Of a stretch of 64,000 nt of DNA, positions 3,784 through 25,406 are shown piece after piece. How positions within the stretch are numbered: position 1 is the first letter of the stretch; each line of letters starts with the position of its first letter. A program made the translations under genes and the position numbers. The stretch is from positions 1-64,000 of the forward strand of contig CAWBZV010000003.1 in assembly GCA_963793305.1 (NCBI GenBank), in the 5' to 3' direction. The notes beneath the pieces were generated by a model that saw nothing but the letters and a program-made list of their open reading frames with translations, did no database searches and was not told the origin of the DNA. Origin of the DNA: an uncultured Gemmatimonadales bacterium. GTDB taxonomy: Bacteria > Gemmatimonadota > Gemmatimonadetes > Gemmatimonadales > Gemmatimonadaceae.

Positions 3784-3846
3784 CGGGCCGGATGTATCCG
3801 GCCCCTACAATGCCGGAACCCGTAGGGGCCGGATACATCCGGCCCG
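3784..3846. repeat. GTAG-type REP pair (REPIN-like)
   Basis: GTAGGGGCCGGATACATCCGGCCCG at 3822-3846 and its exact reverse complement at 3784-3808, between convergent genes. Confidence 0.85.
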
Positions 3847-5077: not shown

Positions 5078-6320
5078 CTAGCGCTCGATTTCCAGGTCCC
5101 GCGCCACGCGCACCAGCGTGGTCACCAGCCCGGTCCACGTGGCTTTCGGTATGCGCGGCGGTGCAGGAGATGCGCAGCAGATTCTGCGCCGCGGCCGGCT
5201 TCAGCACCGGGTTGATGTAGATGCCTTCGTCCAGAAGCGCCTTGCACAGGCGGCACAGATCCACTTCGTCCTGGATCACCACCGGCACGATCGCCGTCTC
5301 GCCCGTCCAGCACCGAAAAGCCGCGCGCGCGCAGCTCCTCGCGCAGCAGCTGCGCGATCCGCAGCAGCCGCAGGCGCCGCTCCGGCTCCTTCTTGATGAT
5401 CTCCAGCGCCGCCCCCACCGCCGCCACCGACGCCGCCGGCAGGCTCGCCGAAAACACGAACGGCCGCGCCGTGTGCTTCAGATAATCCACCACCTCGCGC
5501 TCGCCCGCGATGAACCCGCCCACCGACGCCAGCGCCTTGCTGAACGTGCCCATCACGATGTCCACTTCGTCCAGCACGCCCAGGTGCTCCGCCGCGCCCG
5601 CTCCGGTCCGCCCCAGCACGCCCAGCCCGTGCGCTTCGTCCACGTAGATGCGCGCGCCGTAGGGCTTGGCCAGGTGCACCAGCCCGCGCATGTCGGCCAG
5701 ATCGCCTTCCATGCTGAACACGCCTTCGGAGACCACCAGGATCTTCTCGTCCGGCGCGCAGTTGTTCAGGCACCGCTCGAAATGATCCAGATCGTTATGC
5801 CGGAAGCGCATCACCCGCGCCGGCGACCGCAACGCGCCTTCCACCAGGCTGGCGTGCAGGTTGTGATCGCAGATCATCACGTCGCCCTTTTCGGTTAGCG
5901 CCGAAAGCGTCGCGTAGTTGGCCTGAAACCCGGTGCCGAAGATCATGGCGGCTTCCTTGCGCACGAAGGCGGCCAGCTCGGCTTCCAGCTTCACGTGCAG
6001 ATCCAGCGTGCCGTTCAGCAGGCGCGAGCCGCTGCATCCGCTGCCGTACTTCCGGATCGCCTGCAGCGGCGGCTTCCTTGACCTTGCGGGTGCGTGATCA
6101 GGTCCAGGTAATCGTTGGACCCGAACATCAGCACCTTCGACGCGCCCAGCCGCACTTCGCCCGGCTCGCAGCCTTCGCGGTCGCCGAAGGTCTCGAAGTA
6201 CATGTACAGCCCGGCTTCCTGCAGCTCGCCGGGCGAGTGAACGTGCGGCATTTCTCGAAAATGTCGTTCGCTCCGCTGCTCTTCTTTTTCCGGGTGCTGT
6301 CGCTAGTCGGGTGCGCGCAT
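5078..6320 (-). CDS. spt: Serine palmitoyltransferase-like alpha-oxoamine synthase (PLP-dependent; frameshifted)
   Basis: N-terminal DIFEKC, FGSNDYL, GSRLLNGTL, HASLVEG, EGVFSMEGD, DEAH and GTFSK (PLP lysine); context next to bCerS-like and CerR-like genes favours SPT over BioF/Kbl. Confidence 0.75.
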
Positions 6321-6322
6321 GT

Positions 6323-7433
6323 TCAGTGCCATTCGTAGATTCGATAGGTCTTGTAGTGTCTTGCGCCCATCACTTCCAGGGAGCGTGTCATCAGAACGTT
6401 ATCTTCCAGGATCCACGACATTTCACAGTCGCCGCGTATCCCAACTTCCTGGCAGTCCGCACGAGCGTGGCATAGAAGGCAGCCGCCACACCGGAGGTTC
6501 GATACTCCTCCACCACCCCAAGAGCAAGAACACGCAGACTTTTGATCAAACGTTGATAATACAGAATTTTGAGCAGGCCCGTCGGGAAGAAGCTGCCGCC
6601 TCGCCGGCTTGAGCGCGAAATTGACGTCGGGCAAGGCCAGTGCGAACCCACATCGGCTCCCGCCCACTTCGCCCACCAGCACCAGCTCCGGCTTGAGAAT
6701 CTGCTTCATCTCCTTGCCCATCAGGAAGAACTCTTCGCGAGTCATGGGCACAAATCCCCAGTTGCGCTCCCACGCCGAGTTGTACACATCCCAGATCCGC
6801 CCCACTTCGCCGTCGAAATCCTTCATGTTGATGGGCCGGACCGTGACCCCGCTCTGGCGAGCTTGCGGTCCGCCACGCGCCCGATCTTCTCCAGCTCGAC
6901 TTCCGCCGCGTCTTGACGTAAGCGTAGAGATCCTTGACCTTGCGCAGCCCCGCCTTTTCCATCAACGCCGGGTAATAGCGCGGGTTGTAGGTCATCATGA
7001 CCATGGGATTGGAATCGAAGCCGTCGACCAGCATGCCGCATTCGTAGTTGGTGGAGGGGTTCACCGGCCCCCGCAGGAACTGCGCCGCGGTCGAATACCC
7101 ACTTTCGCGCGGCGCCAGCAGAGCGTCCGCCACCTCCTGGTCGTTCATCGATTCGAAGAATCCGAAGAACCCGGCGTTCTCCTCGTGAAACTTGTTGTGT
7201 GCGGTCGAGGATAGCGGCGATCCGGCCCACCACGCGGCCATCGCGCCGCGCCAGGAAGAACTCGGCCTCGGCGTTGGCGTAGAACGGATGCTTGGCCCGG
7301 TCCAGCAGTTCCTTGACCGCGATCCGCAACGGAGGCACCCAAAAGGGGTCGCCGCGGTACAGCGAATAGGGAAATTCAACAAACTCTTTCAACGGCTGCT
7401 TGTCCATCGGCCGTGACGACCTCAAGCTCCCAC
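6323..7433 (-). CDS. GNAT-fold N-acyltransferase, bacterial ceramide synthase (bCerS)-like (frameshifted)
   Basis: WVPPL, HPFY, GRIAA, GFFGFFES, GPVNPSTNYECGMLVDGFD, MMTYNPRYY, YNSAWERNWGFVP, EMSWILEDN and KTYRIY motifs; GGAGG SD before GTG 7433. Confidence 0.75.
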
Positions 7434-8318
7434 CGCGACTCCTCCCTTGGACAGCTTCCGGTACATCACGGGGCCCGACACAATCAGAGCCGGCGCCAGG
7501 ACGGCTCCCGCCAGACAGATCAACCGTGTAGTGGTATCGAAGATAAACTGTAGCAAAAATGATGAACGGAGTGTACGCCAAATAGACCCGGAACAACCGC
7601 TTCGAGACCATGCGGCTGCTCCACCAGGCCAGGATCGTGAGCTCGGTGTGGCCGCTCGGAAAGCAATCGTAATGGACTGATTCGAGCCGATCAAGCGCGT
7701 CCTGCATGCTGTCGAAACACCCACAAGTCCTTGCAACGGCAAATGCTGTAAGTGATCCAGCAAGAAGCGGGGCCCGCGCGCGGGCACAAGCAGGTAGCCG
7801 ATATAAGACACCAGAAAGCCCGAGCGCGATCAGGAAAGCATAATACCGAAAGTCCGGAAGCGCCGTTTCCGCCACAGCAGCCCGGGGACCAGCAGGACCG
7901 CCGGAACAAACAGAGTATAGACAAGTTGCAGAAATTCCGTGAGCGCCGGCGTTTGGATGCGCTCCAGCCAGACGGTCGGATTCGCATGCCAGATCGAAAA
8001 GTCGAGATCCGCCAGCCATTGGTCGGCGGCCGCGCCTCGGACCGCTGGAATCAGGATCGCCATCTCCTTATAGCAGGAAGCCACTAGGGAAGCGGATACC
8101 AATGGCGGAAGAACCAGCTGGTGGGATTCGGCCGCTTGACGTCGACCAGCAGGATGGCGATGGCGGCCACGTGCAAGGCCAGCAGCATCCCGGCGCCGGG
8201 AACCGGTTCCACCACCCCACGACCAGAGCACCGTGCTGCAGCGAGGTAAGCGAGGATCGATTTGTCGACCGCCCAAAAGCTCGCGTGACCCGAATCCGGG
8301 CTTCAATACTTCAGCCAA
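7422..8318 (-). CDS. PAP2-superfamily membrane protein, Aur1/IPC-synthase-like (PAP2_3) (frameshifted)
   Basis: DQWLADLD, EFLQLVY, YIGYLLVPARGPR, DCFPSGHT and FATVYLRYHYTVDL motifs; overlaps both neighbours. Confidence 0.8.
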
Positions 8319-9255
8319 CCCGCCTCCTTGTACCAGGCGAGCGTTTGGCCAACGCCAGGCTCCAGGGCGGTGTCTGCGCTTGAAGCCGAGCTCGGCGCCG
8401 CGCGGCGCGTATCGCAGGTCCAGCGCCGGCAGTGGGCTTCCTTCACTTTCTCGCGCGAGATGATCCCCGGCTTCCCGGTGAGTCGCGACCAGACTTCGGC
8501 GACGCCGCCTACGGCGTACGCAAGCGGCGCAGGAATGCGTAGGCGGCTCGGGCGCTCGCCGCATGACGCGCGCGCGCCGCGGCACTCAGCTCGCTCCAGG
8601 AGACCGCCTTCGCGTGGTCAGGAAGTACGTGCGGCCGGCGGCGCGGGGATGCGAGCGCCGCCAGCAACCCTTCGGCCAGATCCTCCACATAGATCGCCTG
8701 AACCAGCGCTCGCCGCCCGCGATCTCGAGCGACAAAGCCGCGGGCTACGGATCGGAACATTTCCAGCACCCCGGTGTCGCGCGGCCCATAGACGACGGGC
8801 GGCCGCACGATCACCGCGTCCGGAACCAGCGCTCGCACCACCTGCTCCGCCTTCAGCTTCGATCTTCCGTAGTGCGAGACGGGGCGCGGCGGCGCATCTT
8901 CGTCGATGGGCGCGGCATCGGGGCTGGGACCGGCGGCGGCGAGCGAGCTGACGTGCACGAAGCGGATACCGCGGCCGGCGGCGGCGCGGGCGAGGGTTTC
9001 CGTGGCGCGCGCGTTGCCGGCGAGTAATCCGCGGGTCGCAGCGCCTTGGTGACGCCGGCCAGGTGGATGACGGTGTCGACACCGCGCAGGGCCGCGGCGA
9101 CGCCGTCGCCGGTGACGAGATCCGCCTGGACGAATTCGGCGCGCACGTGGCGGGGCCTGCCCGGGCGTCACGTCGGGGATCACCGCAACGGGCCCGGACA
9201 CGCGTTCGAGCAGATGGCTGCCGATGAAACCGGTGGCGCCGGTGACCAGGAGCAT
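8303..9255 (-). CDS. NAD-dependent epimerase/dehydratase (extended SDR), ceramide reductase CerR-like (frameshifted)
   Basis: VTGATGFIGSHL, HLAGVTK, HVSSLAAAGP, YGRSK (YxxxK) and RPPVVYGPRD; ends WYKEAGWLKY*. Confidence 0.75.
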
Positions 9256-9264
9256 TCTTCCAAT

Positions 9265-9888
9265 TTAGTTGGAGGCGCTGCGGAATGCGACTTCGCCGAA
9301 GAAACTCTCGGCCATGCTGCCGGTGTGCTGCGAATTGATTTGCAGGCGGAGGCCCTTGACGTGGGGCGCGGGCTTTGCCGAAGGCGCGCTCGTAATCGGC
9401 GGCCGACGTTGTGGGATTCCTGGAGCCAGCGGTCGGCCTGCGCCGTTGCCCGATTCGCACACCACGGCGTAAATATGCACCAGCGGAATATTGCTGGCGT
9501 TCTGCATGGTGCCTTTGGGCGCGCTGCTGTCCCAGATGTAGCTGAGGACGCGGCGGTCGGCGAAGGCCACCAGCACCTGCGCGGCCTGGTCATCCGTCGA
9601 GGCGTTGCGGAAATCGCCGCCGGGCGGCAGCCTGGTCACCTTCCAGGTCCAGGAAAGATAGGGCGTGGCGGTGGGATCGACATCCACGGCGCGCTCCAGC
9701 GAGAAGGACGATTTGTCGCTCTTCAGGTGGATGCACGGCTGATCCCGCTGGCTGCACACGGAGATATCCGGCTTGCCATGATTGGCCCGGATCTGCCAAT
9801 CGGAAGAAAGGTGGCCGGCATCCAGGTTGGCCGCGCTCAGAAGCATTACCGCCAACTGGGGAGGTACGGGCCTGGTGAGCGAGCACAA
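9265..9888 (-). CDS. DUF3047 domain exported protein
   Basis: TPYLSWTWKVTRLP, DDQAAQVLVAF and LSYIWD motifs; signal-like N-terminus (true start probably ~9915); frameshifted. Confidence 0.7.
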   Translation of the reverse strand: MCSLTRPVPPQLAVMLLSAANLDAGHLSSDWQIRANHGKPDISVCSQRDQPCIHLKSDKSSFSLERAVDVDPTATPYLSWTWKVTRLPPGGDFRNASTDDQAAQVLVAFADRRVLSYIWDSSAPKGTMQNASNIPLVHIYAVVCESGNGAGRPLAPGIPQRRPPITSAPSAKPAPHVKGLRLQINSQHTGSMAESFFGEVAFRSASN

Positions 9889-10082
9889 CGATAGCGCACA
9901 GGAGTAGAAACTTTTTCAAAAAACCTCTCGGGTGGCGCGAAGCCCTAGTCTTTACTATCGCATGATTGCGCACGTTTTGCCATAGAGTCTTGCGCATCGG
10001 CGATCCGTTTTCAGCCCGGAAGGCGCCGGCTGGCAACGGAGCAGCCGGGGTACCAGAGAGGTTGAAATTACGGAGCCATTTT

Positions 10083-10140
10083 GGGCCGGATGTATCCGGC
10101 CCCTACGGCTGGTGTAGAGGCCGGGCGTGTCCGCGGCCCG
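10083..10140. repeat. GTAG-type REP pair (one intact, one degenerate)
   Basis: GGGCCGGATGTATCCGGCCCCTAC at 10083-10106 and GTAGAGGCCGGGCGTGTCCGCGGCCCG at 10114-10140. Confidence 0.8.
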
Positions 10141-10196
10141 CGCCTGACCGGTGCCGCGTCTTCTACATGAGCCCATCCGCGCCTAAGTCGCGGCCG

Positions 10197-11907
10197 TTAT
10201 TGGCCGAGCAGCTTTATATAAGCTGCACGGGCTTCGGGATCGTCGGGGTAAGGATGCTCCAGGTATAACTCCAGCGCGCGGCGCGCGCGAGCGCGATCGC
10301 CGTGCCGCAGGAAGTAGTCGCCCAGCGTGCGCGCGCATCCCGGCGAGGTCGGGATCGTGCTCGACGTGCAGGCGGCATTCGGCGTCCAGGTGATCGTAAA
10401 GGCGGCTGGCATCGAGCGCGATCATGCCGGGAGGAAGATCGCGCACGAACACCAGCGCCTGCGGGTCTTCATACACCAGCTTCCAGTCGGCGAGCGCGAG
10501 CACCAGCGGGTATAGCGTGCCGCAGTTGTATTCGAAGGCATTGACCACGATCGCGCCGACGCCGTACTGCGCCAGCACGCGGTCGCGCAGCCGGGTCGTC
10601 GGGCGGCGCGCCGAGGATCGTGCGGTAATCCTGGAACACCGCTTCGCTGAGCGCGCGGCCGTCGATGAAGACCGGCTAGTCCGCGCCAGATCAGATAGCC
10701 GCCGTACTCGTAGGTGTTGAACAGCGGGGCGCGCGATGCGGTGCTGCAATAGAAACGCCGCCGCGCCGGCGGGATAGCTCCACTCGGCGGCGCGCAACTG
10801 GAAGAACGAGCCCCGCGCCGCGCCCCAGGCGGTGGTGGCCATCAAGGCGGCCAGGGCGGCATACGGCAGCGCCCGTAGGGGCCGGATATATCCGGCCCGC
10901 GGCCTGAAGCGCGCGGCCATCGCTTTCAGGCGCTCCCGTGGCGCGTAGCTGGCGATCAGCACCGGCGCCAGCAGGCCGATCAGCATCTCGTTGCGGAACG
11001 CCATCAGCGCCGCCGCGGCGAAGGCGGCGAACAGCAGCCAATCCGAGAGCCGGACGCGGCGCCAGGCCAGCGCCAGCGCCAGCGCCGCGCCGTAAAGCAG
11101 CAGGTCGAAGGCGTAGGGCGGACCCCACAAATCGGCGCGGGACCACTCGATGAGCGTGGCCTGGAGCGGGCTCTGGCGATATTGCAGCACCGTGGCCAGC
11201 ACCGCGAAGCCATTGGGATTGAAGCCCGAAGCCAGCACGGCGGCGGCGCCCGCGGCGAAAACCTTGCGCCAGTCCGGCGCGCGCCGCGCGATGGCGTCAA
11301 TGGCATAGGCGCCACAAACGATCCAGCCCAGAAAAAACCCGCCGTGGCAGTTGGCCCAGATGAGCGCGAGCAAGGGAAGAAGATACAGCCGGCGGCGCGA
11401 CTCCAGAATGGCCAGGAACGCCGCGGTGAAGACGTAGGTGAGCAGGGCCGGGCGGTCATGCGCGAACTCGATGGCCAGTGATGCCGCCGCCAGCGCCGCG
11501 GCAATGCCCCACCATCCCGACTGCGCCCGCCGCGCCGCCACCCAGCCGGTGAGCCCGCACAGCAGCGCCAGCAGCACGGCTTTCCACAGCACCACGGCCG
11601 CGAACCCGCCCGCCCGATAAACGCCATACCAGGCCGCCTGCGCCAGCCATTCATGGGTCAGGTTGAACTGCCGCGTGCGGGCCTCATCGGGAGAGGCCGG
11701 AGCTGCCTTAGCCGTGGTGTAAGCGAACGGATCGGGCGTCGGCAGACGGTGGTGCTGGACGATATAACGCCCCGTGGCGAGGTGCCACCACGCGTCCGGA
11801 TCGCTCATTTCCGTGGAAAACAGGCCGAGCAGAAAAACCGCGGTGAGGACGAGAGCGGCAGGGAGGAGCCATCGTGTTGTCGCCGGAATCGGATCGGGCT
11901 TGCGCAA
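10197..11907 (-). CDS. Polytopic membrane protein, probable GT-C fold glycosyltransferase-like, with C-terminal TPR-like helix pair
   Basis: DPDAWWHLATGRYI, PDPF, HEWLAQ, DRP, WANCHGGF, NPNG and IEW motifs; many TM segments; 3' frameshifts. Confidence 0.65.
10875..10899 (+). repeat. GTAG-type REP copy inside a coding sequence
   Basis: GTAGGGGCCGGATATATCCGGCCCG, one mismatch from the copy at 3822-3846. Confidence 0.85.
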
Positions 11908-15253: not shown

Positions 15254-17033
15254 ATGCCCGAGGGATCCTACCTCTATTGCGACGTCAGCCTGCCGGTGCC
15301 GCTCGATCAGCCGTTCACCTACTCGCTGCCCGAGACGCTGCGGCATCGCGTGCAGCCGGGCAGCCGCCTGCTGGTGCCGTTCGGGACGCGCAAGCTGACC
15401 GGCGTCATCCTGCGCTGCCACGACGATCCGCCCTCCAGTGGCCACGCGCGAGGCCCTGCGCCTGATCGATGCCGAGCCGGTGCTGGACGCCGAACTGCTG
15501 GCGCTCGGCCGCTGGATCGCCGGCTACTACTGCGCGCCGCTCGGCGACGTGCTGCGCGGCATGCTGCCGCTGGCGTCGGAGATCCGCCGCGGCAAGATCT
15601 GGTCGCTGACCGATGCCGGCCGCGACGCGGCGCGCCAGCTGCTGCTCGATTCCGCGCCCGACGATCCGGTGGCGCAGATCCTGCGCATGCTGGAGAAGCG
15701 CCCGCTCTCGGCGGCTTACCTGGCCAAGGCGCTGCCGCTGGCGGATAAGGCGATCCGGTCGCTGGAGCGCAAGGGCTTCATCGTGGCCGAGCAGGTGCAG
15801 ACGGAGCGCGACCCGCTGCGCGCGCCCTCGCGACCGGCTGCGCGTGGAACTGGCGCGCGCCGCACCCAGGCCGGCCGACGCCAAACTCAACAAGCCGGAG
15901 CGCGAGCTGCGCGCCTTTCTGGAACTGCATCCCGGCTCGCACAATCTGAAGGACCTGGAAGACGACGGTGAAGAACGCCAGCCCGGCGGCGCGTTCGCTG
16001 GCGCGCAAGGGACTGGTCTCGCTGAAGCCCGAAACCGTGCGCCGCTCGACGGCCGGCACGCGTGCGCGCGGCACGACCTGAACCCCGCCCAGCAGGCGGC
16101 CTTCGACGCAGATCCGCGAGGCCATCCAGGCGCGGCAGTTCCAGCACGTTTCTGCTGCACGGCGTCACCGGCTCGGGCAAGACCGAGGTGTACCTGAACG
16201 CCATCGAGGCGGCGCTGGCGGAGGGCCGCGGCGCGCTGCTGCTGGTGCCGGAGATCGCGCTGACGCCGGCCATGGCGGGCCAGTTCTTCTCGCGCTTCGG
16301 CGACCGCGTGGCCATTCTGCACAGCGCCTTCACCGACGTGGAGCGCACCGAGCAGTGGCGGCGCATCCGCTCCGGCGCGGCATCGGTGGTGGTGGGGACG
16401 CGCTCGGGCGTGTTCGCGCCGGTGCGCAACCTCGGGCTGATCGTGGTGGACGAAGAGCACGACGGCAGCTACAAGCAGGAGGAGACGCCGCGCTACAACG
16501 GGCGCGACGTGGCCATCGTGCGCGCGCAGGCCGCCGGCGCGTGCGTGGTGCTGGGGTCGGCCACGCCCAGCCTGGAGAGCCGCTACAACGCCGAGCGCGG
16601 CAAGTACACGCTGCTGGAGCTGCCCGAGCCGCATCGAGGCGCGGCCCATGCCGACGGTGGAACTGATCGACATGCGGCAGGAGTTTCTGGAGACGCGCAA
16701 GCAGGCCACGTTTTCGCGCGAAGCTGCTGGAGGCGCATCGGCGCGCGCCTGGAGAACGGCGAGCAGACCATCGTGCTGCTGAACCGCCGCGGCTTTTCCA
16801 GCTTCGTGGCCTGCCGCGCCTGCGGCGAGCGCGTGCAGTGCATCAACTGCTCGCTCACTCTGACCTATCACAAGCGCGACCGGCGCCTGCTGTGCCACTA
16901 CTGCGGCTACGCCGAGAAGGTGCCGAGCGTCTGCCCCAAGTGCGCCAGCGAGCACATCTATTTCCTGGGCCTGGGTCGGAGCGCGTGGAAGAGGAGCTGC
17001 ACCAGGCGTTCCCCACCGCCCGCGTGCGGCTCG
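15254..17033 (+). CDS. priA: Primosomal protein N' helicase, 3'-truncated and frameshifted
   Basis: LHGVTGSGKTEVY, LVPEIALTP, VVGTRSG, VDEEHDGSYKQ, LGSATPSLES, LNRRGF and four CxxC pairs; breaks at ERVEEELHQAFPTARV. Confidence 0.95.
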
Positions 17034-17578
17034 CCGAAGTCGTGCCTCGCCATCGGGCTGAGCTCCAATAACCCGGGCAATCCCGCGCCGATCGCCGAGG
17101 CGTGGAACGGTACCAGGTGGCGGTCAGTGGCGGTGCCGACGGAGAGTCGCCGACGTCTTCTGTACGGCGTTTCCTGCCGGTCGGCGACGTCTTGCCTGGT
17201 GGTCGGGACCTACTTAGCCGTCGCCGGGACCGGCTTCGAGCGGCCGTACGCCCTGACCTGGAACGGAAAGTCGCTGAGGCCGACCGCCAGGCCCCCTGCG
17301 CCCAAGGGCAGCGCGTTCGGGTCGCTGACCGGCGTGTCCTGCGTGACGACCAGAGGCTGTGTCGCGGTCGGCGACTCGTAAGGAGGCAGCGGCCCGCTGC
17401 CGGTCGAGACCTGGAACGGCGCGAAGTGGACGCTGCACACGGCGGGGATCCCGGGCCAGGCGGGGTGTCCGTCTCCAGCGGCATCTCCTGCCGGTCGGCT
17501 ACGTCCTGCGTTGCCGTCGGCGAGACTTATTCGATCACGGGTGCGGAGCGGATGTTCCTGGATCGGTGGAACGGCAAC
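17025..17578 (+). other. Fragment of a Cys-rich repeat (beta-propeller-like) secreted protein, of the kind seen in actinobacterial genomes
   Basis: Repeated (G)VSCxSATSCxAVG...WNG units: CGSPKSCLAIG, VSCRSATSCLVVG, VSCVTTRGCVAVG, ISCRSATSCVAVG; no start or stop of its own. Confidence 0.7.
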
Positions 17579-18696
17579 TCGCGGGCGCGGCGCTGCTCGT
17601 CAGGAGCTTCCAGGCACTATCGCGGGTGGCACCGGGCTTCGATCCCGACAGCGTCCTGGTGTTTCAGATGACCGCTTCGTGGGATGAGACGGCGGATCCC
17701 GCCAAAGCCCAGCAACGCGCGGACCGGATTCTCGAGCGGTTGCAGTCCCTGCCGGGCATCGAAGCGGCAGCAGGCGTCACCGGCCTCCCGGGGATCCCGA
17801 GCGACTATCAACTGGAGCTGGAGTCGCGGGAGCCGCGCGCCGCGTCCGAGCCCAAGATCATTGCCCAGGCTCGTATCGTGTCACCTGAGTATTTCGCCAC
17901 GTTGCGCATCCCGCTCCTTGCCGGAGATCTCTGCCGCGAGCAGGGCGCGGGCATGACGAACATGACCATGATGGTCAATCGCGCGTTCGCCAACGCGTAC
18001 TTCCGCGGAACGTCTCCGATCGGGCACCATCTCTCGCAACCCGGGAACATTTACGTTCCGTCGAGCGAAGTGCGCGGCGTCGTGGGCGACGCGCGCGAGA
18101 TGGGGTTGGATCGCCAACCGGTTCCGACGGTCTACTGGTGTGCCGCGTTCTTTCAACCCGGGACGCATTTCCTCGTGCGCGTGCGCGGCGACCCCGGACC
18201 GGTCGCCCCGGCAATCCGCGCGGCAATCCACGAGATCGAGGCGACTAGGTCGGTCTACGACGTGGCGCCGCTGGCCGACCAGATCGCCGACGCCTACGCG
18301 ACGAACCGCCTGCGGATGATCCTGCTCTCCTGCTTTGCCTCGCTGGCGATGCTGCTCGCCTGTGTCGGGCTGTACGGAACGATCAGCTACAGCGTGAACG
18401 TCCGGCGCGGCGAGATAGGCTTACGGATGGCCCTGGGCGCGGTGCGCGAGCGGATTATTCGGCAATTCCTGTCGCAAGGGCTCGTGGTCTCGGGCCTCGG
18501 ATGCGCGGTCGGCATCGCGTTGGCGCTGGCGCTCACGCGATTCCTCTCCGGCATGCTCTACGGCGTCTCGGCGACCGATCCGGCGACGCTGGCCGGCGTG
18601 GTGGTCATCGTGCTCTTGGTCTCCCTGATCGCGTCGCTCGTTCCGGCTATTCGCGCTTCGCGCGTGGAGCCGATGCAGGTGTTGCGGGGAGACTGA
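17578..18696 (+). CDS. MacB/FtsX-type ABC permease (ADOP-like), C-terminal half only
   Basis: LAGAALLVRSF...PGFD, LACVGLYG, RRGEIGLRMALGA and PAIRASRVEPMQVLR; N-terminal half missing. Confidence 0.85.
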   Translation, partial: LAGAALLVRSFQALSRVAPGFDPDSVLVFQMTASWDETADPAKAQQRADRILERLQSLPGIEAAAGVTGLPGIPSDYQLELESREPRAASEPKIIAQARIVSPEYFATLRIPLLAGDLCREQGAGMTNMTMMVNRAFANAYFRGTSPIGHHLSQPGNIYVPSSEVRGVVGDAREMGLDRQPVPTVYWCAAFFQPGTHFLVRVRGDPGPVAPAIRAAIHEIEATRSVYDVAPLADQIADAYATNRLRMILLSCFASLAMLLACVGLYGTISYSVNVRRGEIGLRMALGAVRERIIRQFLSQGLVVSGLGCAVGIALALALTRFLSGMLYGVSATDPATLAGVVVIVLLVSLIASLVPAIRASRVEPMQVLRGD

Positions 18697-19105
18697 GCCG
18701 CTCCATGACCTCGGCCGCACGGCCGAGCAGATCTTGATCGTCGACGCTCAAGTCCGCCACGCGCGCGGTGAGCGCAGCCACACGCCGCGCGCGCGCGTTC
18801 ATGAGCAGCTTGGTCCCCTTGGCCGTCGCGCGAATGCGAATGGCGCGCCCGTCCGACGGATCGTCGCGCCGCACCACCAGGCCATCGCCTTCGAGCCCAT
18901 CGACCAGTCGCGTCATCGTGGGCGGCGTCACGCCTTCGGCCGCGGCCAGATCGCGGAGGGTGATCGGCCCGGCAAAGACGACGACGGAGAGGGCCGAGAG
19001 CCGGGGCGCGGTCAGGCCACTGGTCTCATCCTCGCGGCGAACCAGCCGCAGCACATGGATCGCCGCGGAGTGCAGCCGGTCGGCAACCCGTTCCTCTTGC
19101 GTCAT
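18647..19105 (-). CDS. MarR family transcriptional regulator
   Basis: LAAAEGVTPPTMTRLVDGLE...GLVVRRDDPSDGR winged HTH. Confidence 0.9.
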   Translation of the reverse strand: MTQEERVADRLHSAAIHVLRLVRREDETSGLTAPRLSALSVVVFAGPITLRDLAAAEGVTPPTMTRLVDGLEGDGLVVRRDDPSDGRAIRIRATAKGTKLLMNARARRVAALTARVADLSVDDQDLLGRAAEVMERLSLPATPASAPRAKRE

Positions 19106-19114
19106 CGCATAATA

Positions 19115-19131
19115 TTAGTTAGCCTAACTAA
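19115..19131. promoter_or_regulatory. Probable MarR operator
   Basis: Perfect palindrome TTAGTTAG-C-CTAACTAA in the 28-bp gap between divergent marR and VOC genes. Confidence 0.7.
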
Positions 19132-19133
19132 CT

Positions 19134-19529
19134 ATGATCAACCATCTGACGCAAGTGGCGGTCGTCGTTCAGGACCTCGACCGCGCCGTGCGGTTCTACC
19201 GGGACACGCTGGGACTCAAATTTCTCTTCCAGGCGCCGCCGGGCTTGGCGTTCTTCGACCTGAGCGGCGTGCGACTCATGCTCGACCAGCCGTCCGAGCC
19301 GCTGCCGACCGGCGTCGGTACGTCGATCCTCTACTACGGCGTCGACGACATCCAGGCCGAGCACACCACCCTCGTCGGGCGCGGCGTGAAATTCGAGGAG
19401 CCGCCACACCGCATCGCCTCGCTCGGCGACCGCGATATCTGGATGGGCGCGTTCCGCGACAGCGAAGGGAATATGCTCGCCCTCATGAGCGAGGTGCGTC
19501 ACCCTTCCCCATCTCGTCCCACAGCGTAG
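19134..19529 (+). CDS. VOC/glyoxalase family protein
   Basis: VQDLDRAVRFYRDTLGL and FRDSEGN motifs. Confidence 0.9.
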   Translation: MINHLTQVAVVVQDLDRAVRFYRDTLGLKFLFQAPPGLAFFDLSGVRLMLDQPSEPLPTGVGTSILYYGVDDIQAEHTTLVGRGVKFEEPPHRIASLGDRDIWMGAFRDSEGNMLALMSEVRHPSPSRPTA

Positions 19530-20887
19530 CGACCGCCCGCATCCCGAGCTCGAAGTTCTCGACGCTCATCCACTCGTCGGGCGCGTGCGCGTTCTCGCCC
19601 GGGAGCCCGAAGCCCATGAGCAGGACGGGCGCGCCGAGTGTGCGCACGAAGTCGTCGACGACCGGGATCGAGCCGCCCTCGCCTTGCACGACGGGCTCGC
19701 GGTGAAACGCCGCCGCCAACGCCCGTTTCGCGGCGTCGAACACCGGCCCGTCGACTTTCGCTCTCCAGGGGCGGCCGCCATGCAGTTGTTGGATCGTGAC
19801 GCGTACTCCGGCCGGCGCGACGCGCTGTACGTGTTCCCGCATCAGACGTTCCGACCGTCTCGGGATCCTGATCGGGAACAAGGCGGCAACTGACTTTGGC
19901 CATCGCCTTCGCTGGGAGCACAGTCTTGGCGCCCTCCCCGGTGTAGCCACTCAGTAGCCCGTTGATCTCGCATGTAGGCCGCGTCCAGATCCGTTCTAAT
20001 GTCGAATATCCAGCCTCGCCACCGAGCGCAGGAGCGCCGACGTCACGCTGAAACGACGCCTCGTCAAATGGCAACTGACGGATTTCAGCGCGAGCCGAGG
20101 CTTCCCAGTCCCGGACTTTGTCGTAGAAGCCAGGGATCGCAACGTGTCCGTTCGCATCGTGGAACGTCGCGATAATCCGCGCCAGCGCCGTCGCGGGGTT
20201 GACCACTGCGCCGCCATACATCCCCGAGTGCAAATCCTGCGCAGGTCCTTGCACGTCGATCTGGAAGTACGCGAGCCCGCGCAGAGACGAGAGGATGGAC
20301 GGCAAGCCCGGCGCGAACATCGCCGAATCGGAGATGACGACCGCGTCGCACTTGAGCCGCTCGGCGTGCGCCTCGACGAACGGCGCGAGATGGTCGCTCC
20401 CGACCTCTTCTTCGCCCTCGGCCAGAACGACGATGTTGACCGGCAGGCGGCCACGCACGACGAGGTGCGCCTCGAGCGCCTTGACGTGCGCGAACAACTG
20501 CCCTTTGTCGTCGACCGATCCGCGCGCGAAGATCTTGCCGTCGCGCACCGTCGGCTCGAACGGCGGCGACGTCCAGAGCTCGAGCGGCTCGGCCGGTTGC
20601 ACGTCGTAATGCCCGTACACGAGCACCGTCGGCTTGCTTGGCCCCGCGCCACGCCACTCGGCCAGCACGACGGGATGGCCGGGCGTCGGCATCACCTCGG
20701 TCGTGAGCCCGGCCTTGCTCATTGACGCGGACAGCCACTCCGCCGCGCGCCGGGTGTCGCCATTGTGCTCGGATTTGGCGCTGACGGACGGGATCCTCAA
20801 GAAATCGAACAGCTCGCGCTCGATTCTCGGGCGATTGGCCGAGAAGTACGTGTCGAGATCGCGGGGGACAGTCGGAGACGTGGTCAT
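19483..20887 (-). CDS. M20 family dipeptidase (one frameshift near 19855)
   Basis: YGHYDVQP, ARGSVDDKGQ, EGEEEVGS, DLHSG, GGSIP and NAHAPDE motifs. Confidence 0.92.
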
Positions 20888-22353
20888 GTCGAGGAATTTA
20901 TAAGCGAGCGCGGGAGCGGGGTCCCCGCGATCCATCCGGCGCACGTCCAGATCCGCCGCGCGCCGATCACCTCGCGCCCACGCCTGAGCTCGACCGTATC
21001 GCCGCGCGCCATCGAGAGACAATGTGGCAAGAGCGCGACGATCGCGTCCGGTGTGTGGCTCTCGTCCGGGACGACGACGAGCACCGTATCACCGGCGCGG
21101 GCCCGCTCGGAGAGCTGCGGCCAGAGATCGTACTCGTTCGGCCGGCCACCGATGTTCAACGAGAAGACCGCCGGGTGATTGTTCAGATGAAACGCCAACT
21201 CGGCCGCGTCTTGATACCGGTTCGTCGCGATCCACGCCCCTTGTCGCACGCCATCGATCTCGCGCGCCAGCGACGCCCATCCGGCGCCCTGCGCGGTCGG
21301 GTCTCTTCGGGCCGGGAGCGGCAAGAATGGGACGATCACCTGAGCGTAGATGGCCGCAACTAAAACCATCCCCAGCGCCAGCCCGGCCTTCTCCCATCGC
21401 GTCGTGATCGCCCTCTCAGCTCCCCAGACAATCGTGCCCGCCAGCACGGCCGGCGCCAGCCAATTCGGCTCGACGGATCGCCTGGCGGCACTGTAGACAA
21501 AAAAGGCCGCGATAAACGCAGCGACGCCCGCCACAATAAACACTCTCGACGGCGCCACCCGTCGTAACGCACGTGCGACCGCGATGCTGATCAGGATAAA
21601 GAGAATCGGCGAGACCAACCCGAGTTGCCCACCGAGTAGCGACAACTCGCGGTTGAAGACGTTGCTGTGCCCCTTGGGAACCAGCCCGTGTTGTAACTGA
21701 AACCGAAAAGAGATCCAACCATGCCCAGCATTCCATAACACGACCGGCAAGAACACCACCGCCGCGACGAGTATGGCGACATACGGCCCAGGCCGCCGCC
21801 ATTGCTCGCGCAGATCTTTGCGGGCAATCAACGCCAGCGCGATGCCGACGCCGAACAAGACAGCGGTGTACTTCGACTCGAGACCGCAGCCGAGCGCGAG
21901 ACCCGCCGCGGCCCACCAGGCGATCGGCCGGGTCGAGCTGAGCGCATGATCGACCATGAGAAGCCCGATGCTCAGGGCCGCCAATAGCGGCACGTCAGGC
22001 GTGGCAAGCACGAGTCCGGCACCCGCGAGCGGCATCGCCAGTACCGCCCATGCGGCTCGCTGCGCAGCGACCGCACCACCGAATCGTTGCGCAAGCGCCA
22101 CCGCGGCCACCGTCGCGATCGTCCCGACGAGCACGGCAACGCACCGCACGCCGAACGGCGTGTTGCCGGCAATTAGCGTCCCGGCACGAATCAGAACCGC
22201 GATCGCCGGCGGATGATCGAAGTATCCCGCCGCCAGATGCCGCGACCACTCCCAATAGTACGCCTCGTCCGGAACGATCGGCACGATCGCTGCCATAACT
22301 AATCGCAGTACGCCCGCGAGCCCCAAGATCCACCACGCGGTGTTGTCTGTCAC
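20884..22353 (-). CDS. Glycosyltransferase family 39 (ArnT/PMT-like)
   Basis: PDEAYYWEWS, GYFDHPP, TPD, SKYT and WNAGHGWISF; multiple TM helices. Confidence 0.88.
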   Translation of the reverse strand: MTDNTAWWILGLAGVLRLVMAAIVPIVPDEAYYWEWSRHLAAGYFDHPPAIAVLIRAGTLIAGNTPFGVRCVAVLVGTIATVAAVALAQRFGGAVAAQRAAWAVLAMPLAGAGLVLATPDVPLLAALSIGLLMVDHALSSTRPIAWWAAAGLALGCGLESKYTAVLFGVGIALALIARKDLREQWRRPGPYVAILVAAVVFLPVVLWNAGHGWISFRFQLQHGLVPKGHSNVFNRELSLLGGQLGLVSPILFILISIAVARALRRVAPSRVFIVAGVAAFIAAFFVYSAARRSVEPNWLAPAVLAGTIVWGAERAITTRWEKAGLALGMVLVAAIYAQVIVPFLPLPARRDPTAQGAGWASLAREIDGVRQGAWIATNRYQDAAELAFHLNNHPAVFSLNIGGRPNEYDLWPQLSERARAGDTVLVVVPDESHTPDAIVALLPHCLSMARGDTVELRRGREVIGARRIWTCAGWIAGTPLPRSLINSST

Positions 22354-22368
22354 GGTCGGGAGGCCTCT

Positions 22369-23437
22369 GTGTCTTGGCGTTTGTCTGTATGCGTTCTGGT
22401 GTCGCTCGCCATCGGTTGCTCGGACGGCACGAGTCCGCTGACCCGCCCCACACTACCCTCGAAGTTGTCGGCCTCTTTGCCGGTCGACTCGACGATCAGC
22501 GTCCGCGTCGCACCCAATCTGGACGGCAACAACGTTACAGTCACCGGGTTCAACCAGTATGACGTGATCACCGGCTACGTCACGACGGGCTCGACCTCGC
22601 AGGTCTTTCGCTCGCGCCGGGCGATCGAGTACTTGACGCCGCCGCCCGGGTTCCAGCCGGGCAATTTCTTTTCGATCCACGCCGGGATCAACACCGGCGG
22701 GCAAGTGGTGGGCGGCATTATCAATGACACGTCCCAGCGCGCATACATTCTGGTGGCACGGCGGCGGGACGACACTGCTGCCGCCGGCAATCCCCGCCAT
22801 CCCCGAAGGGCCGCTCGGCTGCGGCGCATGGGCGAACAGCGACAGCGGCTACGTCGTCGGCACGTGCATGCCGGACGTGAACTGGTTCGCCACCGAGTGG
22901 GCCCCGGGCGGCACGGTCATCAAGGAGGCGTGCTGCGGCGTGCTGACGGCGATCGCCGAGAATCAGTACCTCACGGGATACGACTTGACGTTCGATCCTC
23001 CCATAGCGCTACTCTGGCCACCAGGTGCAGCGAACTACACGCTCATCGGCTTGAACGGCGGTCAGATGGAGCCGTCCTTGGGGTTGGCCGTCAACGACAG
23101 CGGCTGGGTCGCAGGCTGGGCATTCGTCTCGGGCACCGACACCGCCGCGCTGCTGTGGGTCCCCGGACAACCCCAGCGCGTCCTGAGCCACCTGGGCGTC
23201 GCCACGGGCGTCGACACGTGGGGCGACGTTGTCGGGTACCACCGCGATACGCCCGCGGGTCCGACCACGGCTTTTCTCTGGAACCTCGCGACCGGTGCGC
23301 ACTTTCTGCCGGGACTCCCCGGTGGCGGCGCGACGGCCGCCGTCGCCATCAACAACGTCAACCCGGAGATCTTAGGCTGGGCCATCGACGCTCAGGGTCT
23401 CAAGCACGCGGTGATCTGGACCTTCCAAAGGAGCTAG
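22369..23437 (+). CDS. Extracellular repeat (HAF-like beta-propeller) lipoprotein (frameshift near 22750)
   Basis: Lipobox-like LAIGC; repeated INxxGQVVG, VNDSGWVAG and VDTWGDVVG...AFLW units. Confidence 0.65.
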
Positions 23438-23458
23438 CGCGACAGCCAACTTGCGGTC

Positions 23459-25406
23459 ATGGCGAACCGGCTGGCCCTCGAAACGAGTCCGTATCTCCGG
23501 CAGCACGCCGATAACCCCGTCGACTGGTACGCCTGGTCGCCCGAGGCGTTCGAGCGCGCTCGCCGGGAGGACAAGCCGATCCTCCTCTCCGTCGGCTACG
23601 CCGCGTGCCATTGGTGCCACGTGATGGCGCACGAGTCGTTCGAGGACACGGCGACCGCCGCGATCATGAACGAGCAGTTCGTCAACATCAAAGTCGACCG
23701 CGAGGAGCGGCCCGACGTTCGACGGCATCTACATGCAGGCCGTGCAGGCGATGACGGGACATGGCGGATGGCCCATGACCATGTTCCTGACGCCGGCCGG
23801 CGAGCCGTTCTACGGCGGCACGTACTTTCCGCCGCGCGATCGGCACGGGTTGCCGGCGTTCACGCGCGTCCTCCGCTCGGTGTCCGAAGCCTATCGCTCG
23901 CGCCGCGGGGAGCTCGAAGAGAGCACGCGCCGGCTGCGCGGATTGTACGACGTGACTGGTGCGGCGGCCGTGGCGAGTGGCGAGATCACGGCCGGCACGC
24001 TGGACCGCGCGTACCAGAGCATCGCCGCGCGGTACGACGCGCGGTACGGTGGGTTCGAGGGCGCGCCCAAGTTTCCGATGGCCATGGTGCTCGACTTCGC
24101 GCTGCGGCACGCACACCGCGCGGGTCATGCAACGCCGACCATCGCGCTCGAATCCTTCCGCCACATGGCGCGTGGCGGCATCTACGACCAACTCGGCGGC
24201 GGGTTCCATCGCTATACCGTCGATGCCATCTGGCTCGTGCCGCATTTCGAGAAAATGCTGTACGACAACGCCCTCTTGGCCCGCCTCGGCGTACACCTGT
24301 GGCAAGCCACCGGCGACGCCGAAGTGCGGGGCGCCACCGAACGGACGCTCGATTGGGTGGCGCGGGAGATGACGGATCCGAATGGCGGATTCTACGCCAG
24401 TCTCGACGCCGACTCTGCTGGGGGCGAAGGCACGTTCTACATCTGGACCGCCGACGAAATCGACTCGATCCTGGGGCCCAATGCGCCGGCGTTCAAGGCG
24501 TACTACGGCGTCACGGCGGAAGGCAATTTCGAAGGCGCGAACATTCTCTTTGTCGCCATGCCTGATGCATCGCCGCCCGTGACCGCCCGCGAGAAAGTGT
24601 TCGCTCTCCGCGCCAAACGTGAGCGTCCGGCGCGCGATGAAAAGATCCTCGCGTCCTGGAACGGCCTCATGCTGCGGGCGCTCGCTGACGCGGCCCGCGC
24701 GTTCGGCCGCGCCGATTATCACGCGCAGGCTGTGTCCAACGGGGAGTTTCTCGCGCGAACCATGGTGCGCCCTGATGGGCGCGTCATGCGGTCGCACGCG
24801 TTTGGCGTCACCAAGATCGATGGCTTTCTCGAGGATCACGCGGCCGTCGCCCTGGGCTTTATCGGATTGTATGAGCTCACCTTCGACGACCGGTGGCTCG
24901 CGCTCTCACGTTCGATCGCGCAAGCAATCGATGCGTACTTCTGGGACGACCACCATCGCCTGTTCTTCGACACGGCCCGTGATGCCGACGCGCTGATCGT
25001 TCGGCCTCGAGACGTGACCGACAATGCCGTCCCGTCCGGCACATCGCTGACCACCGCGCTCTATCTTCATCTGGCCGAGTTGACCGGAGACACGGCGCTT
25101 CGGGAGCGCGCCGAGTGGGTGCTGTCGACGCTGACCGAGTCGATGACAACACACGCGCCGGCGTTTGGATACCTGCTCGGGGCGGCCGACACCGTTGTGC
25201 ACGGCGCGCTGCAGGTCTCGCTGACGGGCAATCCGGCCGCATTTGCCGACGTGGTCGCGACGACGTACATCCCATCGCTTGTGCTAGCTACCGGGAACCG
25301 GCCAGCGATCGACGGACGTCCGACGGCGTATGTGTGCAAGGGGCCGGTGTGCGACCGCCCAGTCACCGACCCCAAGGATCTCAAAGACCAGCTGACGCAT
25401 GCCTGA
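23459..25406 (+). CDS. Thioredoxin-domain protein YyaL/SSP411 family (frameshift near 23720)
   Basis: [42 protein letters not shown] and [12 protein letters not shown]. Confidence 0.93.

Follow-up and report, generated by a model that had tools for sequence, protein, structure and literature searches.

The closest described systems to the locus reported here come from yeast, Bacteroides and Caulobacter. Aur1 of yeast has eight helices, both ends in the cytosol, interrupted transmembrane helices TM3 and TM4 and two long luminal loops, and its essential triad consists of H255, H294 and D298 (PMC13133130). In Bacteroides thetaiotaomicron, BT_1522 came to light as an AUR1 homologue (26% identity at 50% cover), and a mutant lacking this gene no longer makes the phosphoinositol-bearing dihydroceramide (PI-dihydroceramide) but retains the corresponding diacylglycerol lipid (PI-DAG; PMC9246714). 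An independent study agrees on BT_1522 as an AUR1-like inositol phosphoceramide (IPC) synthase (PMC8791184), and the CDP-alcohol transferase BT_1523 makes the phosphatidylinositol (PI) donor (PMC9246714; PMC8791184). The order of the reactions leading to bacterial ceramide and a periplasmic CerR in Caulobacter have been described (PMC11087976), Caulobacter adds the head group via the kinase CpgB (bioRxiv 10.1101/2023.05.01.538943), and Spt-like genes were found across about 40 phyla (PMC11334938). Here, we describe a five-gene operon in a 64,000-nucleotide stretch of DNA (the window), which is the start of contig C3 (CAWBZV010000003.1) of a Gemmatimonadales genome (GCA_963793305.1; the host genome, G000) and opens with acidobacterial DNA, as detailed below. 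The operon combines ceramide genes with a PAP2 membrane protein, and based on sequence and a structural model we consider it likely that this protein acts as a periplasmic ceramide head-group phosphotransferase of the Aur1 type, by which the operon would make a phosphosphingolipid.

The operon consists of five minus-strand genes running from 9919 to 5078, which abut or overlap their neighbors and encode, in this order, a DUF3047 protein, an extended short-chain dehydrogenase/reductase (SDR), the PAP2 membrane protein, a GNAT protein and an alpha-oxoamine synthase; gene layout and Pfam confirmed this arrangement, which had been given in a preliminary description of the window. The analysis was based on intact homologues, chiefly those of a Candidatus Solibacter sp. 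contig (L001; Spt 88% identical). The PAP2 gene itself (7422..8318, minus strand, at least four frameshifts) encodes an eight-helix membrane protein of about 290 aa belonging to the Aur1-like PAP2_3 family: PF14378 scored 52–66 bits on all six intact homologues (one of them cited at 62) at a cut-off of 27, and 26 bits on the frameshifted window fragment. The PARGPR, FPSGH and RYHYxxD motifs named earlier are indeed present, at 7784–7767, 7662–7648 and 7539–7519 (as RYHYTVD), the first in a frame that differs from the one common to the other two. In a comparison of a profile of 27 PAP2 proteins with the PDB, Aur1 ranked first (E 7e-5) and LpxE next, and the alignment pairs FPSGH and RYHYTVD with FPSLH and THHYFVD of Aur1. 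Aur1 is also the best fold match (Z 16.0, root-mean-square deviation 4.5, 267 residues aligned) of the predicted model with its eight membrane helices (predicted local distance difference test, pLDDT, 82.6), followed by LpxE (Z 12.0 over 162 residues) and SMSr (Z 11.7). The helix list of the model features a TM3 broken near its start, a split TM4 and long loops after TM3 and TM5. Lys and Arg are denser on the ends and loops predicted to lie inside (0.14–0.28 per residue) than on the outer loops with the triad (0.09–0.12), which places the two long loops and the triad outside. The H-H-D triad itself (H220, H259, D263) is invariant in 65 of 65 sequences and present in the window. By sequence, predicted fold and predicted topology the protein is Aur1-like, as its earlier placement in the Aur1/PAP2_3 group had suggested. 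No NCBIfam model matches the PAP2, GNAT or DUF3047 proteins, and a protein atlas look-up returned family names only.

Motif positions beyond the triad bear on the question whether the enzyme would transfer or hydrolyze. The C3 motif of PAP2 phosphatases follows the consensus SRxxxxxHxxxD; in 65 of 65 sequences, its Arg position is occupied by Thr (A-T for S-R), as in Aur1. At C1, described as K-x6-RP for PAP2 phosphatases and likewise lacking in SMS enzymes (PMC5798408), 64 of 65 sequences have Gly in place of the Lys, and RGP stands instead of RP, with the Arg kept. The operon protein consequently does not display the canonical C1 and C3 motifs of the PgpB, LpxE and LPP phosphatases. These substitutions argue against a sphingolipid phosphatase or head-group hydrolase, which would pass the phospho group to water and thereby recycle a phosphosphingolipid to ceramide or dephosphorylate an intermediate made elsewhere, as do the full-length architecture, which is that of Aur1 and not of the shorter phosphatases, and an operon devoid of a kinase or CDP-alcohol transferase. 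Such an enzyme would account for the synteny equally well, the same triad hydrolyzes in LpxE, PgpB and G6PC1, the database label reads phosphatase, and the invariant Arg178, Arg181 and Arg257 could bind a phosphomonoester; on balance we regard a hydrolytic role as unlikely.

The transferase reading further draws on the linkage of the PAP2 gene to the ceramide genes. In the top 80 of 313 Spt relatives, counting only loci with enough upstream DNA, the genes for GNAT (74 of 75 loci), PAP2 (70 of 73), SDR (68 of 70) and DUF3047 (58 of 68) occur too often for a chance association. Of 101 evenly sampled Bryobacterales genomes (PAP2 threshold E ≤ 1e-30), 12 carried PAP2 and 14 bCerS. Every one of the 12 PAP2 genes immediately precedes bCerS, and the 87 genomes without bCerS yielded no PAP2 match. 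The expectation that PAP2 stays syntenic with spt and cerS in relatives was thus borne out. More independent support comes from a phylum sample of 151 Acidobacteriota genomes, in which PAP2 was matched in 45 genomes and bCerS in 49. Apart from the centre genome, the 11 top-ranking PAP2 matches (E < 1e-45; one, G066, unpublished) all stem from bCerS-positive genomes, and nine of their neighborhoods comprise five of the type spt-SDR-PAP2 with bCerS elsewhere, one SDR-PAP2, one PAP2 abutting bCerS and two PAP2 genes standing alone. Two weaker matches are located within spt-bCerS clusters, e.g., in the order spt-bCerS-SDR-PAP2 in G094. A quick tree, built with a one-third sample of the mid-length representatives, groups the proteins of the five-gene and spt-SDR-PAP2 loci together (support 81) and has two spt-linked proteins on long branches; no weight was placed on this tree. 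Overall, the PAP2 gene is a partner of the ceramide genes.

The same survey brings up the option that the protein acts on glycerophospholipids, either in a PDCT-like head-group exchange with diacylglycerol or as a generic lipid phosphatase, and merely travels with the ceramide genes. Weak AtPDCT1_2 matches (E ~0.002) would fit such a role, as would a sister group of 18 genomes (E 2e-38 to 5e-25), of which only four carry bCerS: ceramide genes were absent from all eight sister-group neighborhoods examined, none of the five genomes checked gave an Spt-level match, and one sister-group protein from a bCerS-free genome lies within a CDP-alcohol-transferase/HAD cluster. By these counts, the wider PAP2 family does other jobs. 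For the operon protein, however, we hold this option to be very unlikely in view of the strict pairing with bCerS in Bryobacterales and the retention of PAP2 beside spt or SDR across at least three gene orders. In a genome with MIPS but without a match to bCerS, genes for a CDP-alcohol phosphatidyltransferase, a HAD hydrolase and a PAP2_3 protein follow one another (L091:3218-5924), which gives the impression of a separate pathway for a head-group lipid.

The assignments of the core genes as an Spt, a bCerS-like GNAT and a CerR-like SDR candidate hold by sequence comparison, so that the locus is a ceramide operon, as had been proposed. The Bacteroidota-type serine palmitoyltransferase (Spt; 5078..6320, minus strand, about 413 aa, at least four frameshifts) had been called an alpha-oxoamine synthase with BioF and Kbl as possible affiliations. 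In a ranking of scores, with no tree involved, it matches the NCBIfam model NF047600 (SerpalmtaseCFB) best with 450 bits, ahead of bioF (374) and Kbl (338 and 284), its best PDB matches are the SPT structures 8guh and 3a2b (E 1e-101, the next family following at 1e-74), and a GTFSK motif occurs in 76 of 76 homologues. The GNAT-fold N-acyltransferase (6323..7433, minus strand, about 371 aa, at least five frameshifts), which gave weak Acetyltransf_1 scores and weak GNAT matches only in a PDB search, is 32% identical to YghO of E. coli BL21(DE3) over its whole length (373 aa, E 5e-73) and hence bCerS-like. The extended SDR (8303..9255, minus strand, about 321 aa, PF01370, at least four frameshifts) is a CerR-like ceramide reductase candidate that shares 27% identity (E 9e-28) with the epimerase-family gene adjoining spt in BL21(DE3), the reference used here. 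With this BL21 SDR as query, the top match was the spt-linked SDR in five of five genomes, and a YxxxK motif is found in 62 of 62 SDR homologues. YghO and ECD_RS14835 are the proteins that we take to be bCerS and CerR of E. coli BL21(DE3), respectively. The core genes could in principle make a non-ceramide amino-lipid from another amino acid or acyl acceptor, which PAP2 would then modify; here, the Spt score lies below the curated NF047600 cut-off of 640 and the SDR, at its low identity to the BL21 reference, scores higher on HpnA-type models. Against this stand the matches of all three core genes to the BL21 spt cluster and the ceramides that Halamka et al. reportedly described in 2024 for Solibacter usitatus (doi 10.3389/fgeoc.2024.1400278), and we give the amino-lipid very little credence.

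From the observed genes, their linkage and conserved residues and from the predicted fold and topology, we infer the activities, donor and product as follows. By homology to the Caulobacter and E. coli BL21 set, Spt would condense serine with an acyl thioester, bCerS would N-acylate the keto-base and the SDR would reduce the product to dihydroceramide. The PAP2_3 protein would then act like Aur1 on the periplasmic side of the inner membrane: Asp263 would activate His259, which could take the phospho-head group from a glycerophospholipid under release of diacylglycerol, and His220 would activate the 1-OH of ceramide as acceptor. In favor of this reading, the CerR of Caulobacter is periplasmic and lies on the membrane side predicted for the PAP2 active site.

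Several observations weigh against an Aur1-type transferase as the role of the PAP2 protein. The Aur1 profile match covers only 69 residues, LpxE is likewise matched (E 0.01), two PAP2 proteins searched singly against the PDB gave no match, and Foldseek, which also puts Aur1 first, does so at a modest E of 1.2e-3; identity to Aur1 in the structural alignment is 18%. Yeast Aur1 in isolation requires Kei1 for activity (PMC13133130). Regarding linkage, most of the 12 Bryobacterales carriers are closely related, largely from one clade, and do not represent 12 independent events, three of the 12 overlap with the set of Spt-relative loci, and the ten best PIP-synthase matches all come from PAP2 carriers, i.e., reflect carrier kinship. 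Three of the 73 loci lack PAP2, one of them with spt alone and two (L033 and L063) with an SDR-bCerS-spt set. Moreover, the host genome's own intact spt-bCerS-SDR cluster (G000:C5:667147-670572; 42%, 46%, and 37% identical to L001) has no PAP2 gene alongside.

As to the donor of the head group, PI is the likeliest candidate, taking about half of the probability, followed by phosphatidylethanolamine or phosphatidylglycerol. MIPS was found in five of five operon genomes, and a complete operon genome encodes a PIP-synthase-like protein (below cut-offs) as well as PssA/Psd and PgsA. MIPS and PIP synthase were, however, rejected as donor markers, since both are too common to favor PI over the other lipids: MIPS is present in 93 of the 151 phylum genomes and a PIP-synthase-like gene in 99 of the 101 Bryobacterales, so that PI is available but not singled out. 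No lipid genes were seen beside MIPS in five partly scanned neighborhoods. The same frequencies of MIPS and of the PIP-synthase-like CDP-alcohol transferase (e.g., L108:2793-3425), which is nearly universal in Bryobacterales, predict that inositol lipids are widespread in Acidobacteriota. G094 and G190, which carry a bCerS-linked PAP2_3 gene, gave no MIPS match and no PIP-synthase-level match; PI is unlikely to be the donor there and, provided that these genomes are complete, other lineages may use other donors. It is conceivable, if rather doubtful, that the spt-linked PAP2_3 group as a whole comprises single-subunit, Kei1-free, full-length Aur1-shaped sphingolipid synthases with lineage-dependent donors, some of them being ethanolamine- or glycerol-phosphoceramide synthases. 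For Bacteroides, PMC8791184 reports that no candidate was found for either of the latter two enzymes.

A further gene was noticed in three of the five spt-SDR-PAP2 loci, where a VTT/DedA-domain gene directly precedes spt (L084:8177-8785, L085:2051-2662, and L087:2197-2796). DedA proteins are linked to undecaprenyl-phosphate flipping. The VTT/DedA gene is a candidate for the ceramide flippase, which PMC11087976 describes as not yet identified. It would also fit an LpxT-like role of PAP2, in which ceramide would receive a bare phosphate from undecaprenyl pyrophosphate, phosphatidic acid or phosphatidylglycerophosphate in the periplasm, so that ceramide-1-phosphate would form with no kinase involved; LpxT itself is reported as a bacterial case of periplasmic phosphotransfer by a PAP2 protein (PMC2229476). 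Yet the five-gene operon has no VTT gene and Aur1 is the best fold and profile match, which leaves this role only a slim chance.

The first gene of the operon encodes a DUF3047 protein (9265..9919, minus strand, about 216 aa, PF11249) with one frameshift near 9860. The alignment reveals an N-terminal hydrophobic segment resembling a signal peptide, and the model (pLDDT 91) is a beta-sandwich whose fold matches jelly-roll or carbohydrate-binding-module-type chains (top Z 15.6–12.5). DUF3047 occurs in 19 of the 151 phylum genomes, the centre genome being the one case of linkage to bCerS; as it is also absent from 10 of 68 Spt-relative loci, it was rejected as a core part. It is a lineage-specific exported accessory protein, dispensable for the chemistry, and one may guess that it binds the head group or a glycan. 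Concerning the extent of the locus, previously given as 5078..9913, the locus is real and only its upstream end shifts, the first gene probably starting at a TTG at 9919.

Alignment of intact homologues to the window revealed at least 18 frame switches over the 4.8 kb of the five genes. Pfam still recognized DUF3047, Epimerase, PAP2/PAP2_3/PAP2_C and Aminotran_1_2 on the window fragments, the three PAP2 scores being weak because of the frameshifts. Since relatives with 82–87% DNA identity carry the operon intact, the frameshifts most likely reflect errors of the consensus and not gene decay; intact copies exist in many Bryobacterales and related Terriglobia. The closest copies by DNA (83–87%; L008, L019, L041, L047, and L069) are labeled Acidoferrum, Sulfotelmatobacter or unclassified Acidobacteriota and not Bryobacterales, a pattern that points to movement of the operon between members of Terriglobia or to mislabeled bins. 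A membrane protein of about 570 aa (10183-11907, minus strand) is encoded upstream of the operon, as it is in 11 of 80 related loci; it matches neither Pfam nor NCBIfam. Short palindromic REP-like repeats with a GGGCCGGATA core recur within the acidobacterial segment (around 3784-3846, 10083-10108, and 10878-10898). An Rfam scan of the window gave no match reaching gathering scores, and the operon was found in none of the public sequencing runs (best word share 0.08 among the 24 listed), which consequently provide no evidence on habitat.

The first 17 kb of the window, including the operon, belong to an acidobacterium and are not to be credited to G000. In positions 1–17.4 kb, no DNA match above 72% identity and longer than 200 bases was found in 20 relatives of the host, and the left part matches five Bryobacterales-type genomes gene by gene at 64–85%. 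The Bryobacterales match of priA (78–85% at the nucleotide level) breaks off mid-gene at 17,001–17,033, and colinearity of the window with host relatives of the same genus, at 91–92% and farther along at 92–93%, sets in at 17,577–17,578; the join of acidobacterial DNA on the left and host DNA on the right is thereby placed at 17013..17578. On C2, the host encodes a priA of its own; this 790-codon open frame is 49% identical to the copy in the window. Tetranucleotide distance sets the segment apart (0.15 vs. 0.06–0.11) and a fourth-order Markov composition test failed to separate it, so that its foreign origin is settled by homology. The left 17 kb contain many frameshifts and a truncated priA. 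The simplest reading is that the left end of the contig is probably a misassembled chimera. On the host side, a 7.3 kb stretch exists in two copies (window 17578-24828 and G000:C4:157517-164784; 96% identical, 114 gap openings), probably a redundant low-quality contig end. The host further carries a distant PAP2_3 gene on C9, beside an RND transporter. Its gene content gives the impression of a Gemmatimonadota-like organism. As a practical warning, a gene survey would assign the operon to the wrong genome.

If the proposed function holds, a head-group enzyme for sphingolipids can be named in a group of soil Acidobacteriota, and a lipid class is predicted, probably inositol phosphoceramide, that in soil is commonly ascribed to fungi and plants. 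For Aur1, an antifungal target, it would also provide a compact bacterial model that probably needs no partner protein and could be expressed as a single operon. The gain hence lies in range, gene organization and testability, the chemistry being already precedented in bacteria. We found no description of a PAP2 gene inside an spt operon in the literature searched, although Stankeviciute 2022, Halamka 2024 or their supplements may hold one; the locus thus appears to extend a known pathway, with a bacterial precedent for the chemistry and with an arrangement and lineage that are undescribed in that literature.

Compared with the ceramide pathway of Caulobacter crescentus (PMC11087976) and E. 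coli BL21(DE3), the operon has the same set of an Spt, a GNAT protein (32% to YghO) and a candidate reductase of the epimerase family (27% to the BL21 gene), whereas its Spt is of the Bacteroidota type and neither a dedicated acyl carrier protein nor an acyl-AMP ligase is encoded. Solibacter usitatus, the species with reported ceramides, belongs to the same order of Acidobacteriota as the source of the operon. With Aur1 of S. cerevisiae (PDB 9ivc, 9vj4), the PAP2 protein shares the eight helices, broken TM3 and TM4, the two long outer loops, a triad in which H220, H259, and D263 correspond to H255, H294, and D298, and the Thr in place of the C3 Arg; it differs in its overall sequence (18% identity) and in the PARGPR motif of the C1 region, and in contrast to yeast Aur1, which needs Kei1, no Kei1 partner is found in the operon. 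The NCBIfam models NF052560 and NF052562, which had been guessed to represent BT_1522, turned out to be unrelated, and this enzyme was compared by its published description. The earlier claim that the route is distinct from that of Bacteroides proved wrong, as BT_1522 is a published Aur1-like IPC synthase (PMC9246714; PMC8791184): this bacterial AUR1 homologue transfers a phospho-head group onto dihydroceramide, the same reaction as predicted for the Aur1-like PAP2 protein. However, BT_1522 is part of an inositol operon (BT_1522-1526) apart from spt, while the PAP2 gene described in this study is located inside the ceramide core operon with no adjacent inositol genes.

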